Below are positions 8,966 through 64,000 of a stretch of DNA of 64,000 nucleotides, in pieces. This stretch comes from Escherichia virus ESCO5 (Duplodnaviria; Heunggongvirae; Uroviricota; Caudoviricetes), in IMG/VR virus record IMGVR_UViG_2974610597_000001; one strand, written 5' to 3'. The translations under genes and the position numbers were made by a program. The number at the start of each line of letters is the position of its first letter. Position 1 is the first letter of the stretch. The notes under the pieces were generated by a model. It was not told the DNA's origin and ran no database searches. It worked only from the letters and a program-made list of their open reading frames with translations.

Positions 8966-10990
8966 ATGAATTTAACAAGACCTAATAGTGCGATAGCCGA
9001 TCTAGTAGAAGCTACTTATCGAAAACGTCGCAGTTTTGAGGCAGGTTTTACATTACGTAATTCCCGTGAAGTTTTGCTGTTAGCGGCAGAAGGGAATTAT
9101 TACCAATGGAAAGGAACTTTTCCTAAAGTAGTTCCAGCAAACTCTACGCCAGCCACCACAGGTGGTATTTCTTCCCTTGCATGGCAAAGTGTTGGGACCG
9201 CTGATGATATAGCAATTATCAATGCCAAGTTTACGGCAATGCAGCAACAGATTGATGATCTGTCGGAAACAATACCTGAAGCTGGTAAATCGGCTTATCA
9301 GATCGCACTTGATAATGGTTTTGTTGGAACAGAAGCACAATGGCTTGCTTCTTTGAAAGGGGATACTGGTGCTCAACTTAATATTAAAGGATCATTAGCA
9401 AGCACTAGTGAACTACCATCTACAGGTAACGTAGCAGGTGATGGTTATATTGTAGGAGATGTAATCTACGCTTGGGATGGGGCTGTTTGGAAACTTATCT
9501 CTTCTCTTGGGCCAGAAGGGAAATCAGCTTACGAGGTATGGTTAGCAGATGGTAATACAGGATCTGTTTATGACTTTCTTGCCTCTATAAAAGGTGATAA
9601 AGGAGACGTTGGTCCTACAGGTCCACAGGGTGCACCTGGTGTCAACGCTAATGGTTTTGATTACCGTGGAGATTTGCCTTCTACAAGTAACTTACCACAA
9701 CCTAACTCTGAAAACGTAAGCCAAGCTTATTCTATTAATGGTAATCTTTATGTCTCTAATGGGACAGCTTGGGTCAACATGGGTAATATTGTTGGTCCTC
9801 AAGGTCCACAAGGTGAGGCAGGTAAAGACGGTCTAGATGGAACAGATGGAGACGAAGGGAAATCTGCATATCAAAGTTGGCTGGATGCTGGTAATGAAGG
9901 GACAGAAGTAGATTTTATTGCCTCACTTAAAGGTCCAAAAGGAGACAAGGGTGATCAAGGAGAGCGAGGTCCACAAGGTGAACTAGGTCCACAAGGACCA
10001 GTGGGTGCAACAGGATCAGGTTTAGAGATTATCGGGGTTCTGAACAGCGAAGCTGAACTTCCTCCTACTGGAGAAGTAGGTGATGCATATAAAATTAATA
10101 ATGATTTGTATGTTTGGGTTCAAGATGCTACAGAATGGATGAATGTAGGCAGTCTTGGAGGAACATCAATTACAGCTAAAGGTCATGTTCCGAACAGTGA
10201 AGCTCTCCCTGTTTATAATAACTACGGTGATGCCTATTTAACTGAAGACACTAGTAATCTTTACATCTATACCTACGATCAAGACACCAATTCCGCATCT
10301 TTTGTTGACATGGGAAGTATTAAAGGCGACAAAGGTGAAAAAGGGGATAAAGGAGATAAGGGTGATCCTGGAACAAACGGAACCAACGGTACTGATGGGA
10401 CCAACGGTAAGGACGGCGCACAGTGGTTTGTAGCAACAACTAATCCAGTCACAGGAGACGGTGTTATCAATGATTACGCCTTCAATACTACCACTGGAGC
10501 AGTATTTAAGAAAACAGATTCTTCTACGTGGACACTTATAGGAACTCTTCCTAGTATACCAGAAGCCCCTCAAGACGGCTTGACGTATGGTCGTTCTGAT
10601 GGAAACTGGATCGAAATATCAGGATCAGATCCTACGGAAGCTATAACACCAACTAGAGTTACAGCAGGTTTCATGGAACTTGAAACAACTACTGCCAACT
10701 CTGGAGCATCTTGGACTCCTTCTGGAACTTCCAATATGTATGTTGTTACAGTAACTGACGCTCTGACAGTTGGAGCATGGCCTGGTGTCACTGGCTCTAC
10801 AAAACCTAAAGCGTTTTCAGCAATGATTTATTTGATTCAAGATACAACGGGACACACGGTTACACTAGATGCGTCTTATGGAGCACTAAATGATACAGAA
10901 ATAGCAACTACTGCTAACGCAGTAACAATTTTGCAATTAACGTATCCTGGTGTGGGTGATATCGTGGACATGGTTGTTGTAACACGATAA
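8966..10990 (+). CDS. Collagen-like repeat tail fiber protein
   Basis: 674 aa; Gly-X-Y runs (GPQGPQGEAGKDGLDGTDGDEG; KGDKGEKGDKGDKGDPGTNGTNGTDGTNGKDG) and three copies of a module GKSAYxxWLxxGxxG(T/S)xxDFxASxKG. Confidence 0.6.
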   Translation: MNLTRPNSAIADLVEATYRKRRSFEAGFTLRNSREVLLLAAEGNYYQWKGTFPKVVPANSTPATTGGISSLAWQSVGTADDIAIINAKFTAMQQQIDDLSETIPEAGKSAYQIALDNGFVGTEAQWLASLKGDTGAQLNIKGSLASTSELPSTGNVAGDGYIVGDVIYAWDGAVWKLISSLGPEGKSAYEVWLADGNTGSVYDFLASIKGDKGDVGPTGPQGAPGVNANGFDYRGDLPSTSNLPQPNSENVSQAYSINGNLYVSNGTAWVNMGNIVGPQGPQGEAGKDGLDGTDGDEGKSAYQSWLDAGNEGTEVDFIASLKGPKGDKGDQGERGPQGELGPQGPVGATGSGLEIIGVLNSEAELPPTGEVGDAYKINNDLYVWVQDATEWMNVGSLGGTSITAKGHVPNSEALPVYNNYGDAYLTEDTSNLYIYTYDQDTNSASFVDMGSIKGDKGEKGDKGDKGDPGTNGTNGTDGTNGKDGAQWFVATTNPVTGDGVINDYAFNTTTGAVFKKTDSSTWTLIGTLPSIPEAPQDGLTYGRSDGNWIEISGSDPTEAITPTRVTAGFMELETTTANSGASWTPSGTSNMYVVTVTDALTVGAWPGVTGSTKPKAFSAMIYLIQDTTGHTVTLDASYGALNDTEIATTANAVTILQLTYPGVGDIVDMVVVTR

Positions 10991-49151: not shown

Positions 49152-49591
49152 TTCTTCTTTCCTTTCTTTAATTTGTTGTGACCTTTACCCTTGTAAAGCT
49201 TGTGATTACGAGCAGACGGGTTATTTTGGTTCTCCAGTCGGCTAACAGGTGTCTTCCAAAGATTCCCTGCTACAAAAGAGGCTGCCACAAGTTCTTCCAG
49301 GCATACAAAATCCAAAGCAGGCATCTTTGTTTCCCTCATCTCGCGTTCTACATTAGACAACACTCCTTCTTCCTTACTGTCTTCTTTTTCAATTACAGAC
49401 CAACCCTGTTCCTGCCAAGCTTCCCCTCTGAACCAAGTTTCCATGTTATAACCGTGTTCGTCGAGAATAACACCATCTCGCATCTCAAACCATTCGCCAC
49501 CACAAAAATGGCGGTGCTCAACACGTCTACCTTCCTTCATTGCTTCTTTAGCTTCGGGCCAAGTCAGTTTGATGTTTTGGATGTTTTGCAT
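49148..49591 (-). CDS. Hypothetical protein with basic C-terminal tail
   Basis: 147 aa; first gene of the minus-strand block, C-terminus KLYKGKGHNKLKKGKKK. Confidence 0.35.
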   Translation of the reverse strand: MQNIQNIKLTWPEAKEAMKEGRRVEHRHFCGGEWFEMRDGVILDEHGYNMETWFRGEAWQEQGWSVIEKEDSKEEGVLSNVEREMRETKMPALDFVCLEELVAASFVAGNLWKTPVSRLENQNNPSARNHKLYKGKGHNKLKKGKKK

Positions 49592-49705
49592 TTGTTTTCT
49601 CCTTTTGTTTGGTAGGAGTTGATCTTAACAAGATTAAAAAGTATGTCAATACTTGATCTGAAATTATTTTCAGGTATCATGTATGAACATTAACAAGAGA
49701 GGTAG
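49592..49705. promoter_or_regulatory. Divergent promoter region at strand switch
   Basis: Minus-strand reading gives TTGACA - 16 nt - TAAGAT upstream of 49591 start; plus strand has TTGATC - 16 nt - TATCAT and SD AGAGAGG before 49706. Confidence 0.4.
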
Positions 49706-49999
49706 ATGATGAACATTACTTTAGCAACTAAGAATATTTCTGAAACAATTAACGGTTTTGGTGTGATTGTAGCCTTGCACGGTAACAATGAGAAATGGTT
49801 GGCTTCTTTTGAAGAGGATCGTCAACACAACATTATTTTAGATGCCCCTATAAAAGTTATGCATATCGTTGGTGAAAGCAAAGTGCTCACTTCCTCCCGT
49901 TCAAAAGAACAAATTACAAATGAATTAGTAAAACTGCTTGACAATGTTCTTAACATGTTTGATAATGCACCCATCGATACAAAACGTGTCTTAATGTGA
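49706..49999 (+). CDS. Hypothetical protein
   Basis: 97-aa ORF, first gene of plus-strand operon. Confidence 0.35.
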   Translation: MMNITLATKNISETINGFGVIVALHGNNEKWLASFEEDRQHNIILDAPIKVMHIVGESKVLTSSRSKEQITNELVKLLDNVLNMFDNAPIDTKRVLM

Positions 50000-53331: not shown

Positions 53332-54540
53332 ATGAGTAAAGCTAAAAGTTGGGAAGAATATAAAGCAGAATGCGAGATCATAGCTCTCTCTAAAGGATAT
53401 AAAATTTTAGGCCATAAAGAATGGAAAGGGTGTGAGACTAAACTCCTGATAGAATGTCCTGTGCACGGTGTATGGGATACTTGTAAAATATCTAACTTTA
53501 AAAGTGGGAAGTCTTGCCCTTCTTGTGGTGAATTAACAAAAAGGGAGAAGAGAACGAAGAGCAGAGAGGACCAAGAGAAAGAGTGTGAAGAAGAAGCGTT
53601 AAAAAGAGGTTGGCGCTTCTTGGGTATCTACGGAGAATGGCTGAAAGCTAAAAAGACACGAGTAATCTTACGTTGTGATAGGGGTCACGAGTTTAACACA
53701 TCTACCATAGACAACTTTAAGAATAATAAACAAGGTTGTCCAGTTTGTCGTTTAGAGGATATAGGTAAACACAATAAGCTTTCAGACGATCAGCACATAC
53801 AAGATTTCATGAGTACGGGTGTGTTTCCCGAAGGCACTACCTTCACTAATACAGGGGAAAAAGCTGGGAGGAGCGAAATACTTTGGAGTGTATTTTGCCC
53901 TATCTGTGCTATAGATGAGTTTTCCAAAGCTGGGGTAGGAACGGGATATTTTATCGGTAGAGGTAGTTCATTAAAACAGGGTATGCGCCCTTGTCGTTGT
54001 TCTGCCAGTTACAAATATTCTGAAGAAGAGATGACATTTAGAGCAAAAAGTGACGTAGAACGTAGAGGGTACGTGTGGTTGGGGTGGATTGGGAAAGCTT
54101 CTATACTTGGGGATTTTGAATATGGTTGCAAGGATCATGGGAAACATGTGTGTAGTGCTAACAATTGGTTAAATAAGGGGTGTGGTTGCCCTGGTTGTGC
54201 AGGTATGAATCAACAACAAGCCTACATTAATTATATTTACGATGAGCAAGATATTATCTGTGCACTGAAGTTTGGTATTGCTAATAATAGTAATCGCCGT
54301 ATGAAAGAACAAAATAGTCGTAATGTGTTTACTATGAAACAGAGCCAAGTGTGGCACTTCCCTACTGTGAAGCAATGCAAAGATGCAGAAAAGCGTTGTA
54401 AGCGTGTCCTTCACACGGAAGCAGTGAGCAAATATTCTATGCCAGATGGCTACACAGAGACAGTGGAGTTATCTTGCATGGCATCAATACAAAATATTTA
54501 TAAACTTTATGGTGGAACATTACAGGAGGAAACATGTTAG
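53332..54540 (+). CDS. Cys/His-rich repeat protein (three zinc-binding modules) with possible T5orf172/GIY-YIG-like C-terminal domain
   Basis: 402 aa; three repeats of K(G/R)(Y/W)..LG...W.G......C..HG ... GCP.C; C-terminal YINYIYDEQDIICALKFGIANNSNRRMKEQ. Confidence 0.35.
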   Translation: MSKAKSWEEYKAECEIIALSKGYKILGHKEWKGCETKLLIECPVHGVWDTCKISNFKSGKSCPSCGELTKREKRTKSREDQEKECEEEALKRGWRFLGIYGEWLKAKKTRVILRCDRGHEFNTSTIDNFKNNKQGCPVCRLEDIGKHNKLSDDQHIQDFMSTGVFPEGTTFTNTGEKAGRSEILWSVFCPICAIDEFSKAGVGTGYFIGRGSSLKQGMRPCRCSASYKYSEEEMTFRAKSDVERRGYVWLGWIGKASILGDFEYGCKDHGKHVCSANNWLNKGCGCPGCAGMNQQQAYINYIYDEQDIICALKFGIANNSNRRMKEQNSRNVFTMKQSQVWHFPTVKQCKDAEKRCKRVLHTEAVSKYSMPDGYTETVELSCMASIQNIYKLYGGTLQEETC

Positions 54541-54912: not shown

Positions 54913-55092
54913 ATGGCACGTTTAGCAGACCATGAAATCTTTAAACCTATTCTGAACCACTATGATGAACTTAAGGCAGTGTTGGATTGTTATAGAGAGG
55001 ATGAAGAACGTTTGGAAGTGAATCTTAAGATAGTTCTGATGAAAGCTTTTCAAGACGGGCAAGCTGAAGTCTTAGGAGGCATGAAAAAATGA
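54913..55092 (+). CDS. Small hypothetical protein
   Basis: Start refined to ATG at 54913 after AAAGGAGAAA. Confidence 0.3.
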   Translation: MARLADHEIFKPILNHYDELKAVLDCYREDEERLEVNLKIVLMKAFQDGQAEVLGGMKK

Positions 55093-55631
55093 GAATAACT
55101 GATGAATATGTATTCTTCTTTTCACATAAAGATGTGTTTAGTAATTGGTATATTGCACCCTTTACAGAAACCGAACCAGGTTACAATCAGACATTTAATT
55201 GTGTCGAACAATACATGATGTGGCGTAAAGCTTTGCTTTTTAATGACCACAACACGGCACAGGCTATTCTGACTCATAGTTTGATACGGAAAGATGAGAA
55301 GATCCAAGCTTATTACAAACGTATGGGTAGGGCAGTGTCAGATTTTGATAACAACGTATGGGAAGAGAACCGTGAGCGTATTGTTATGCGAGGTTTATGC
55401 TTGAAATATGTACAGAATCCAGATTTGTATGCAGACTTACACCTTTACCAATACAAAACGTTTGTTGAAGCAAGTCCTTACGATAAGGTTTACGGTATTG
55501 GAATGGGAATGTATGAACCAGGGGTGCTAAATCCGGTCAACTGGAAAGGGCAAAATCTTTTAGGTAAATATCATAACAAACTGATCGAAATACTTTTCCC
55601 AGACAAAATACCGCAAAGACGATATTTGTGA
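55089..55631 (+). CDS. NADAR-domain (YbiA-like) protein
   Basis: 180 aa; FFFSHKDVFSNWYIAPF ... GYNQTFNCVEQYMMWRKALLFND and C-terminal NWKGQNLLGKYHNKLIEIL match conserved NADAR/DUF1768 blocks. Confidence 0.55.
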   Translation: MRITDEYVFFFSHKDVFSNWYIAPFTETEPGYNQTFNCVEQYMMWRKALLFNDHNTAQAILTHSLIRKDEKIQAYYKRMGRAVSDFDNNVWEENRERIVMRGLCLKYVQNPDLYADLHLYQYKTFVEASPYDKVYGIGMGMYEPGVLNPVNWKGQNLLGKYHNKLIEILFPDKIPQRRYL

Positions 55632-55686: not shown

Positions 55687-55722
55687 AGGCTCCTACAGCA
55701 CCGTAGAGAGCCTATTATTTTG
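55687..55722 (+). terminator. Rho-independent terminator ending the plus-strand operon
   Basis: Hairpin AGGCTCCTACAGCACCGTAGAGAGCCT followed by ATTATTTTG. Confidence 0.45.
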
Positions 55723-55875
55723 TCCTATACAAACCCTTGTCTTTTTCAGTTTGCATCACTAGGATTCGATCTGAGTGGGTTCCTGAAGGTCTGCCAATAA
55801 GATTAAAGGTTATCTCAAATTCCCACTACCTATTATCTCAAAAATCCCTCAAATTATTTAAACTTTTTAAGAATT

Positions 55876-56060
55876 TACAAAAGTGAAAGTTGAAAACCAA
55901 AATTTAAAGTTTAGGAAAATTATCTTAAAATGTCAGATACAAAACAAAACTCAAAAGTCAAGGAAAATTTTAAAAATTTTGCGCGCCCACAGTATTTAAA
56001 GTTTTTTTGCTTTTACAAAAATGAAAGTACAAAAGCAAAATTTAAAGTTTACAAAAATTT
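55876..56060. repeat. AT-rich direct repeats (about 45 bp, 2 full plus 1 partial copy)
   Basis: acaaaagtgaaagttgaaaaccaaaatttaaagtttaggaaaat (55876-) and acaaaaatgaaagtacaaaagcaaaatttaaagtttacaaaaat (56013-), with related partial copy around 55940. Confidence 0.7.
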
Positions 56061-56069
56061 ATGCAGATG

Positions 56070-56185
56070 GGAATGAGAAGAGTTCTCATATGGAAATGCA
56101 AATGATAATGATTCGCATTTAGGTTTATAAATGAGATTGATTCTTATTTGATAAGGTAAATGATAATCATTCTCATTTAGAGAAT
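56070..56185. repeat. Array of four about 29-bp tandem repeats, each carrying an imperfect palindrome AAATGAnA...TTCnCATTT (iteron/operator-like)
   Basis: Units begin near 56072, 56101, 56129, 56158: aatgagaagagttctcat / aatgataatgattcgcattt / aatgagattgattcttattt / aatgataatcattctcattt. Confidence 0.7.
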
Positions 56186-56436
56186 GACGCGCAGGGGCGG
56201 TGTTTGTCTCGCGCTCCCGTGTCCCCTCGCCATGTAATAAGAATAACAGATCCAGCCAGGAAAGCAAGCGATTATTTTATCTTTACATTTCTTTACAAAT
56301 ATATAGCGCCCAGCCTACCGGCGATCAACCTTCCAACCAGCGCCCTGGTATGTTAGCCCCGCCTTTACGCCGTGGGGGTGGCGCTTCCTCTTCTGTATGT
56401 AAAACAGTATAAGCCCGATCCCTGGGCTTGTCAAGA

Positions 56437-56703
56437 TTATTTTTTGTTTTCTTGCCAGGATAGGACACCTAACCAAAAATGCATATCGCCCCGCGCCCCT
56501 GGTGGGATCTTGCTTTCCCCGCCGCCACTGCAAGCCCATAAATAACCATCAGCGAACGGATCAAAGTTTTCTATTTCTTCCACCTTATGATCGCCCAGGT
56601 TGAGAACTGTTTCAACCTTTAAGCCCGTTGCGCTTGCTACCTGGTGCACCGTGCCGCCTTGCCAGCCTAATGAGTGCATAAGGTGTAATGTAGTATTCGT
56701 CAT
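56437..56703 (-). CDS. Hypothetical protein encoded in GC-rich island, opposite strand to flanking genes
   Basis: 88-aa ORF MTNTTLHLMHSLGWQGGTVHQVASATG...; ATG at 56703 preceded by AAAGAAAGGG; local GC clearly above phage average. Confidence 0.3.
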   Translation of the reverse strand: MTNTTLHLMHSLGWQGGTVHQVASATGLKVETVLNLGDHKVEEIENFDPFADGYLWACSGGGESKIPPGARGDMHFWLGVLSWQENKK

Positions 56704-57093: not shown

Positions 57094-57155
57094 TTGACAA
57101 CAAACAACAACCTGATAAGATGTATCACATAGGGCGGCGGAATGGTCCACCGCTC
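57094..57155 (+). promoter_or_regulatory. Promoter-hairpin cassette 2
   Basis: TTGACA - 16 nt - TAAGAT, then GTATCACATA and hairpin GGGCGGCGG...CCACCGCTC. Confidence 0.5.
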
Positions 57156-58531: not shown

Positions 58532-58591
58532 TTGACAACGTTTTTTAATCTGATAAGATGTATCACATAGGGCGGCGGAATACTTCCCCGC
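58532..58591 (+). promoter_or_regulatory. Promoter-hairpin cassette 5
   Basis: TTGACA - 16 nt - TAAGAT + GTATCACATA + GGGCGGCGGAATACTTCCCCGCC; spacer near-identical to cassette 2. Confidence 0.5.
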
Positions 58592-63260: not shown

Positions 63261-63292
63261 GTAAAGAAATGTAAATAATGCGCTATCCCCTA

Positions 63293-63828: not shown

Positions 63829-64000
63829 CCCGAACAATGTTGATAGATTCCGCCTATGAAAAACCGACACAGAACAAAATTGCATAATTTGCGCTATCGA
63901 GCTAATCAACCAGCAAACGAATAACCATACACCCCAGGGTTACAGGCTGTTAGAGAGCTATTTAGAGCGGTTAAAATCGATCAACAACCAACAACAAACA

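Follow-up and report, generated by a model that had tools for sequence, protein, structure and literature searches.

The four-box array and its surroundings

The locus described herein lies in a stretch of 64,000 nucleotides of the Escherichia phage ESCO5 genome (hereafter the window; a window position equals the position in the ESCO5 record KX664695.3 minus 84,247), and consists of four tandem 21-bp imperfect palindromes, termed boxes or units 1 to 4, which sit in a gap of about 800 bp without annotated genes. The segment 55600-56500 was 100% identical to the ESCO5 record (149,268 bp; Phapecoctavirus, Stephanstirmvirinae). The distances from start to start were exactly 29, 29 and 29 bp, and Tandem Repeats Finder (TRF) returned a period of 29, 2.8 copies and a score of 87 for the array. 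When the unit consensus AATGAKAATNATTCTCATT was searched with up to three mismatches, it matched only the four units in the 64 kb; counted by strand, eight matches were observed against 0.43 expected, and none of 100 shuffles reached eight. An earlier inspection of the same DNA (the sequence-only reading) had described four tandem palindromic repeats of about 29 bp with AT-rich direct repeats upstream of them, and both descriptions were borne out, the noted starts being at most 1 nt off and the direct repeats being present as two 72-nt copies with 82% identity.

As listed in Table 1, the gap is bordered on the left by the terminator of a plus-strand operon and a NADAR-domain gene, and on the right by a small open reading frame (ORF) on the minus strand. 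Two sigma-70 promoters, P1 and P2, both point toward the array; box 4 is reached about 56 nt after the start of P2 and about 220 nt after that of P1, and the AT-rich block is placed on the opposite side of the array. No coding gene follows P1 and P2 beyond the array on the minus strand. The GC content of 55800-56199 was 27.5%, and that of the segment holding the GC-rich modules A and B (56187-56400) was 49.5%, as against 39% for the genome.

Table 1. Features of the array locus and of the other box-bearing or repeat-bearing sequences (window positions unless another sequence is named)
Feature	Position	Strand	Remarks
NADAR-domain gene, left neighbour of the gap	55089-55631	+	Pfam NADAR, E = 1.8e-35
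Terminator of the upstream plus-strand operon	55687..55723 (approx.)	+	Left border of the non-coding region; annotated as rho-independent in the 99% identical phage ASO2A and mapped by offset
AT-rich block with two 72-nt direct repeats	55850..56059	.	Copies 55850-55921 and 55988-56059
Fur-like box 1, GAATGAGAAGAGTTCTCATAT	56071..56091	.	Weakest unit; 16.9 bits, rank 4 in the window; centre -117 from the module-A anchor
Fur-like box 2, AAATGATAATGATTCGCATTT	56100..56120	.	26.8 bits, rank 2; centre -88
Fur-like box 3, AAATGAGATTGATTCTTATTT	56129..56149	.	19.2 bits, rank 3; centre -59
Fur-like box 4, AAATGATAATCATTCTCATTT	56158..56178	.	Promoter-proximal primary box; 30.7 bits, rank 1; centre -30
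Terminator-like hairpin (predicted)	56188..56166	-	
xxGAAT element after box 4, GAGAATGA	56181..56188	.	Repeats the right half of box 4 in inverted orientation; possible weak rightward -10
GC-rich module A, GACGCGCAGGGGCGGTGTTTGTCTCGCG...CCCCTCGCCATG	56187..56235	.	Fixed distance from box 4
Promoter P2	56241..56268	-	-35 TTGCTT (56268..56263), 16-nt spacer, -10 TATTCT (56246..56241); reads toward the boxes
Direct repeat GTAAAGAAATGTAAA (GTAAA-N5-GTAAA)	56282..56296	-	Just upstream of P2
GC-rich module B, CTACCGGCGATCAACCTTCCAACC..GGTATGTTAGCCCCGCCTTTACGCCGTGGGGGTGGCG CTTCCTCTTCT	56310..56392	.	About 30 nt invariant in the alignment
Promoter P1, TTGACA-N17-TATACT	56406..56434	-	11/12 match
Small ORF, 88 amino acids	56437..56703	-	Right border of the gap, immediately upstream of P1; phrog_19316 (function unknown)
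Isolated Fur-like boxes of the second non-coding region	ESCO5 record 148336; 149090; 1		20.8 bits; 17.8 bits; 28.1 bits
GATC-containing repeat blocks	L009 (phiTE) 940-1110; L004 (rV5) 1200-1380; upstream parts of L010 and L011		
Box array in L143	L143 10764-11323		13 near-perfect GATAATGATAATCATTATC-type boxes
Box array in L179	L179 6647-6937		8 boxes
Box arrays in L175, L176 and L125	L175 3474-3714; L176 10733-10949; L125		28-29-bp spacing

Fur-type specificity of the boxes

Fur boxes are well known from the promoters of bacterial iron-uptake genes, and the sequence-only reading had likened one unit, the fourth, to their consensus. The comparison of the window with the 7-1-7 Fur consensus TGATAATNATTATCA gave unit 4 (one mismatch) and unit 2 (two mismatches) as the two best matches, with units 1 and 3 at four mismatches. 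With the 19-bp consensus GATAATGATAATCATTATC and up to three mismatches, the sole match in the window was again unit 4 (56156-56174, 16/19), which fitted the two forms in registers 3 bp apart; unit 2 was accompanied by a weak overlapping site 6 bp leftward, at 56095 (8.2 bits). In the Fur clusters of Escherichia coli (E. coli), sites are offset by 3 and 6 bp (Chen et al. 2007, PMC2189734).

We then used a weight matrix derived from 95 boxes (53 unique) in the orthologous region of 31 relatives drawn from GenBank phages, IMG/VR and metagenomes, the consensus of which was RAATGAKAATcATTCTCATTT. With the ESCO5-like sequences excluded from the matrix, the units were the top four of approximately 128,000 window positions (scores in Table 1), the next position reaching 11.1 bits. 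As a positive control, the matrix of phage boxes was scanned over 50 kb of E. coli K-12 (595000-644999), and the six best matches (19.9 to 9.4 bits; seventh 5.4 bits) were all located in the fepB-entC, fepD-entS and fepA-fes intergenic regions, which are footprinted Fur regions (Chen et al. 2007, PMC2189734). Because a matrix built on phage sequences ranked footprinted Fur regions of E. coli at the top, the phage boxes were revealed to have the specificity of Fur operators. The resemblance of unit 4 thus stood, and its restriction to a single unit did not: judged by their sequences, all four units are Fur boxes.

In the scan of the whole ESCO5 genome, seven positions scored at least 16.8 bits, all of them within two non-coding regions, and the next best reached 12.3 bits. 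The second of these regions (about 1.5 kb; loci L233 and L231) covers 148089-149268 and 1-360 of the record, from window position 63842 on and for the most part beyond the window, and holds three isolated boxes (Table 1). The GenBank record of ESCO5 starts at the exact first base of one Fur-like box. The ESCO5 relative phiTE is reported to be circularly permuted (PMC3475682), which makes a fixed physical end unlikely for phiTE. As a separate observation, the sequence TGATAAGATGTATCA, a weak match to the Fur consensus (three mismatches), was found twice in the window, at 57113-57127 and 58551-58565; the first of these shares bases with the -10 (TAAGAT) of an early sigma-70 promoter, and TGATAAGATGTATCA is probably a promoter sequence rather than a Fur site.

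Conservation of boxes, promoters and flanking modules

A distant blastn comparison revealed that unit 4 and the GC-rich DNA to the right of it were approximately 70-90% conserved in phi92-, rV5-, PVP-SE1/4MG- and phiTE-like phages. The search of related phages for the same repeat, which the sequence-only reading had proposed, recovered orthologous arrays in distant relatives: in each of the 31 homologues, comprising Stephanstirmvirinae, three Vequintavirinae genera (Certrevirus, Seunavirus and, via rV5, Vequintavirus) and metagenomes, the scoring gave one to five Fur-like boxes at the position corresponding to the ESCO5 array. In 27 of these homologues, a box was centred exactly at -30 from the anchor YGGTG of module A, the homologues without it being L084, L099, L104 and L107. 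The box centres lay at -30, -59, -88 and -117 in the ESCO5-like phages; Certrevirus had additional boxes at -59, -88 and about -125, and Seunavirus and the L095 group had one at -59. The 29-bp phasing was accordingly common to several lineages though their box sequences differ. The phi92-like phages (17, 24, 29 and 23) as well as L006 and L007 departed from it, and PVP-SE1, L048 and L057 kept a single box. In rV5 (L004, rV5_ev146, 1480-1760), the Fur box and the GGTGNTTGTCTC module occurred twice in tandem, and each tandem unit seems to have a separate promoter-like element before it on the minus strand.

The promoters were conserved in the same manner. P1 scored 9-12/12 in every lineage with a divergent spacer, and the hexamers of P2 were kept with wholly divergent spacers, appearing for instance as TTGCAA-N17-TATATT in most Vequintavirinae and as TTGATC-N16-TATTAT. 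Since the hexamers were retained while the spacers diverged, P1 and P2 were regarded as real promoters. The transcript of P2 would start near 56234, which would place box 4 at +56 to +76. The 17-nt spacer of P1 in ESCO5 is a GC hairpin, AGCCCAGGGATCGGGCT, able to act as a terminator for the upstream minus-strand ORF, and P1 in this respect resembles the promoter-stem-loop cassettes described for T4-type phages.

The element GTAAAGAAATGTAAA just upstream of P2, aligned as GTAAAG-N4-GTAAAG on the minus strand and nearly invariant, was present in every aligned lineage, with one base change each in L034 and L108, and was lacking in L099 and L104. The window holds two identical copies where 0.32 would be expected, the other one being at 63261-63275(+); each precedes the -35 of a different sigma-70 promoter, a clear one in the case of the second copy, by 13-17 nt. 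The element resembles the CpxR box, GTAAA-N5-GTAAA.

On the other strand, a rightward promoter-like element, TTGAAT-N18-CAGAAT, runs over box 4 and is weak in ESCO5 (GTAAAT/GAGAAT). The GAAT of its downstream part, the xxGAAT element, was retained in all aligned lineages but the divergent L048; because the essential A at -11 is missing in some of them (CTGAAT, CGGAAT), a rightward Fur-repressed promoter over box 4 appears doubtful.

The GC-rich modules were conserved from Stephanstirmvirinae to Vequintavirinae, the core GGTG(A/T)TTGTCTC of module A being shared from ESCO5 to rV5, PVP-SE1 and phiTE. Neither module matched Rfam, permissive thresholds included, and the invariant part of module B, compared with 185,579 bacterial species genomes, was found on a single contig of a metagenome-assembled genome only. 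Inspection of the alignment gave no hairpin in module A that was consistent across clades. In the fold of module B, one pair covaried (A:U in 12, G:C in 8), another was broken in 9 of 20 and the rest were invariant; the loop of its hairpin carries a G/C homopolymer run of variable length. As consensus folding of both strands gave weak signals, structured RNA in modules A and B was not claimed. Several further candidates were discarded. An ORF through module B was ruled out by loop indels of 1, 2 and 4 nt, and an 18-residue MARGHG... peptide in the GC-rich modules by its absence from Vequintavirinae. A sigma-54 promoter in module A (GGCAC..TTG) had, on inspection, the wrong spacing and lacked the GG in ESCO5. 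A link to the pseudo-ToxI of phiTE via GGTGATT was also abandoned; the paper gives no such location, and L009 had no sequence like the ToxI repeat.

The boxes were not confined to this group of phages. Units 2 and 3 of ESCO5 were linked by blastn to T5-like phages, and in T5 itself (L111, NC_005859) a run of the same Fur-type boxes, such as AAATGAGAATCATTATCATTT, was located at 9548-9725 inside the annotated injection-stop (iss) region. The run adjoins a DnaA box at 9510, and the reported shear site (about 9618) lies inside it; phage EC104 (L005, 1390-1560) has Fur-type boxes as in the T5 iss region. The ESCO5 region and the T5 iss region are both long, conserved, gene-free stretches with many repeats and palindromes. 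They differ in that T5 joins the boxes with DnaA boxes and GTGCAAATCCGACA repeats, neither of which ESCO5 has, and in that two-step injection is not known for ESCO5-like phages. The available part of a comparative study of the T5 region treats its repeats and DnaA boxes and does not mention Fur (Davison, 10.1101/866236).

A scan of IMG/VR for two strong boxes 5-30 nt apart gave at least 120 viral stretches, of which 79 loci (L113-L191) were analysed. Most of the 79 were unrelated by blastn to ESCO5 or T5; each carried 2-13 boxes, with recurring spacings of 23, 29, 34-35 and 43 bp (examples in Table 1), in ORF-free gaps of a median 641 bp and in all gene-orientation contexts. This recurrence suggests that the array form itself is under selection. 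Because the boxes occur in phages that share no sequence of the region, recognition by a host protein is favoured over a phage initiator.

Function of the array

From the specificity described above, binding of the array by host Fur is highly likely, and we favour, with moderate confidence, the reading that the array is a Fur operator serving as an iron-responsive control element. Each unit would present a 7-1-7 Fur box overlapping a 19-bp-type box, and the array, phased 29 bp from centre to centre, would stand between the leftward promoters P1 and P2 and the AT-rich repeat block. In an iron-replete cell, Fe2+-Fur dimers could fill the phased sites and form a nucleoprotein block that halts or limits the non-coding transcripts of P1 and P2 and screens the early promoters nearby. 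At low iron, the block would dissolve and transcription would continue into the AT-rich block. Late in infection, the array would also draw Fur off host promoters, since with each replicated genome at least four further strong sites become available to titrate Fur. The roadblock mechanism as such, though the likeliest of those considered, is proposed tentatively.

Several observations weigh against this reading. Genomes shuffled by mononucleotide occasionally scored 19-20 bits, so that units 1 and 3 alone would not be significant, and the significance of these two comes from phasing and conservation rather than from score. In the right half of the phage box, G predominates at the place of a T in the Fur consensus (TGAGAAT, 42:10), so that a different protein with overlapping specificity could be the one that binds. 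P1 and P2 do not overlap the boxes, their distance to box 4 being at least 56 nt, and the one promoter-like element lying across box 4 is in several lineages weak or defective, compared with 83% of E. coli Fur clusters that overlap a promoter (Chen et al. 2007, PMC2189734). Moreover, Fur sites located downstream of a promoter are described as weak in roadblock repression (PMC2189734), and the dominant spacing in ESCO5 is 29 bp, not the 3- and 6-bp offsets of E. coli Fur clusters.

Set beside known systems, the array shares the recognition sequence of the E. coli Fur operators (fepA-fes, fepB-entC, fepD-entS and iucA), and its sites span about 110 bp, inside the 19-142-bp range reported for E. 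coli Fur clusters (PMC2189734). The ESCO5 sites differ from those operators in being discrete, 29 bp apart and off the conserved promoters, in controlling no protein-coding gene and in belonging to a virulent phage. An architectural likeness may be offered by ftnA, with its tandem Fur boxes away from the promoter core and beside AT-rich DNA; there, tandem boxes upstream of the gene reportedly counteract silencing by H-NS, and on this model Fe2+-Fur would act architecturally and not by blocking RNA polymerase. The ftnA boxes are upstream of the activated promoter, however, and the ESCO5 boxes are downstream of P1 and P2. A Fur box in a phage genome is also known from Stx1 prophages, in which the stx1 promoter is Fur-repressed; that case differs in being a single operator over a toxin-gene promoter in a temperate phage.

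The most serious alternative, which overlaps the operator reading and may be its partner as much as its rival, is that the array chiefly sequesters Fur as phage DNA accumulates, its proximity to promoters being incidental. Such a sponge would relieve host iron uptake, RyhB and the Mn-dependent NrdHIEF reductase of repression and thereby feed phage DNA synthesis; we consider it unlikely to be the main role. It is consistent with the unrelated viral contigs that carry 5-13 tandem near-perfect boxes (13 in L143 and 8 in L179), far beyond the needs of an operator, with the location of these arrays in long ORF-free gaps irrespective of gene orientation, and with the variation in box number from one to five among relatives. 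ESCO5 is annotated with a class Ia ribonucleotide reductase, an iron-dependent enzyme, and a single Fur box on a multicopy plasmid is said to derepress fhuF::lacZ in the Fur titration assay (FURTA). A pure sponge, however, would have little use for a proximal box fixed to the nucleotide relative to module A or for the 29-bp phasing kept in several lineages. The relatives retaining only one box also speak against it, as does T5, where a single copy of the array is injected along with the first 8% of the genome.

The three remaining readings are less likely than either the Fur operator or the sponge. The sequence-only reading had considered the locus a replication origin or a multi-operator region; the second part agreed with the Fur specificity and the conserved, phased array, and the first found its only support in the adjacent AT-rich repeats. 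If the locus were an origin, its repeats would have the role of iterons or accessory sites, and the P1 and P2 transcripts entering the AT-rich block would prime or activate replication as at the T7 and T4 origins or in ColE1. Four regular repeats of about 20 bp beside an AT-rich block are indeed reminiscent of iteron origins (lambda ori, P1 oriR and plasmid iterons), the block with its long direct repeats is faced by two promoters, and the entire region of about 800 bp is non-coding and conserved. Phages phi92, rV5 and phiTE contain comparable repeat blocks with other sequences, and those upstream of the boxes in Vequintavirinae consist of multiple GATC-containing repeats of the GGTCTCGATCG and TCTCGATCGAG types in place of the 72-nt repeats of ESCO5 (Table 1).

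An origin nevertheless appeared improbable. The units are palindromes with the specificity of the host Fur and not oriented iterons; the region has no DnaA box, the sole TTATNCACA of the window being at 2239; and the neighbours are the NADAR-domain gene and a small unclassified ORF, with no initiator or rep gene. The boxes are, moreover, shared with phages lacking the neighbouring genes. The GC-skew analysis, proposed in the sequence-only reading as a way to locate an origin, did not point to the array: the cumulative minimum lay at 49.6-49.8 kb, 6.4 kb away, with no switch at 56.1 kb, a weak argument as phage skew follows transcription. This minimum coincides with the flip of gene orientation at 49591-49706, where minus-strand genes on the left give way to plus-strand genes on the right. 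In T5, the boxes are distant from the mapped origins (Davison, 10.1101/866236).

Still less probable is that the boxes are operators of a phage-encoded DNA-binding protein whose specificity resembles that of Fur by chance. A candidate would be the 88-residue product of 56437-56703(-), which adjoins the region and by eye looks like a helix-turn-helix protein, and the phage consensus TGAGAATNATTCTCA is systematically off the Fur consensus by one position per half-site. The ORF matched no Pfam family. Its homologues were found in only 152 phage records, mostly Stephanstirmvirinae and with no Tequintavirus among the matches listed, and the boxes occur also in Vequintavirinae, T5-like phages and unrelated contigs. 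The six top matches of the phage matrix in the 50 kb of E. coli, all Fur operators without a false positive, likewise speak against such a protein.

The least probable reading is an RNA-level element: transcribed leftward from P1 and P2, the palindromes would form hairpins that serve for termination or processing. Each unit can fold into a 9-10-bp A/U-rich hairpin followed by UUU, and a terminator-like hairpin is predicted next to box 4 (Table 1), but the stems are nearly without G-C pairs, the region folded no better than shuffles (z = -1.27), and in the commonest box the stem is interrupted halfway by a U-C mismatch. In this commonest proximal box, TGATAATcATTCTCA, position 4 is not self-complementary, and the T/G and C/A choices there occur in three of four combinations. 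Since this box is not self-complementary and the half-sites vary without compensation, the units are better understood as protein sites than as RNA hairpins.

If the operator reading or the sponge holds beyond ESCO5, unrelated virulent phages (ESCO5-, phi92-, rV5- and T5-like, and many uncultured ones) would carry tandem Fur-box arrays targeting the iron regulator of the host. Such arrays would serve either for iron sensing that gates early non-coding transcription or the priming of replication, or as a Fur sponge that derepresses iron uptake and the alternative ribonucleotide reductase, and the iss repeats of T5 would be Fur sites. This generalization from sequence is possible and still rather doubtful. 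A phased and conserved Fur-box array in a gene-free control region of large virulent phages represents a different use of the site, as no coding gene is controlled. Should Fur bind, these phages would read the iron status of the host or titrate its master iron regulator, and their development would be tied to iron, a dominant variable in the gut and at the infection sites of therapeutic phage use. With boxes present in the T5 iss region as well as in over 100 viral contigs, most of them unrelated to ESCO5 or T5, a general, so far undescribed phage strategy is suggested, and Fur becomes a concrete candidate protein for a T5 region unexplained for decades. Neither Fur boxes in rV5-, phi92- or T5-like phages nor phage genomes with Fur boxes in tandem arrays were reported in the literature searched, the coverage of which was incomplete and gives no proof of novelty. 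As no match to the region was found in the E. coli genomes searched, its derivation from captured host DNA was dropped as an explanation.

With respect to the genes to the left of the gap, that at 55089-55631(+) is annotated in ESCO5 as GTP cyclohydrolase II, yet its Pfam match was NADAR and no cyclohydrolase. Farther upstream, the hypothetical protein encoded by 53332-54540(+) contains a CapR homology domain (E = 9.7e-23) and matches T5orf172 weakly; its phi92 orthologue carries an endonuclease annotation.

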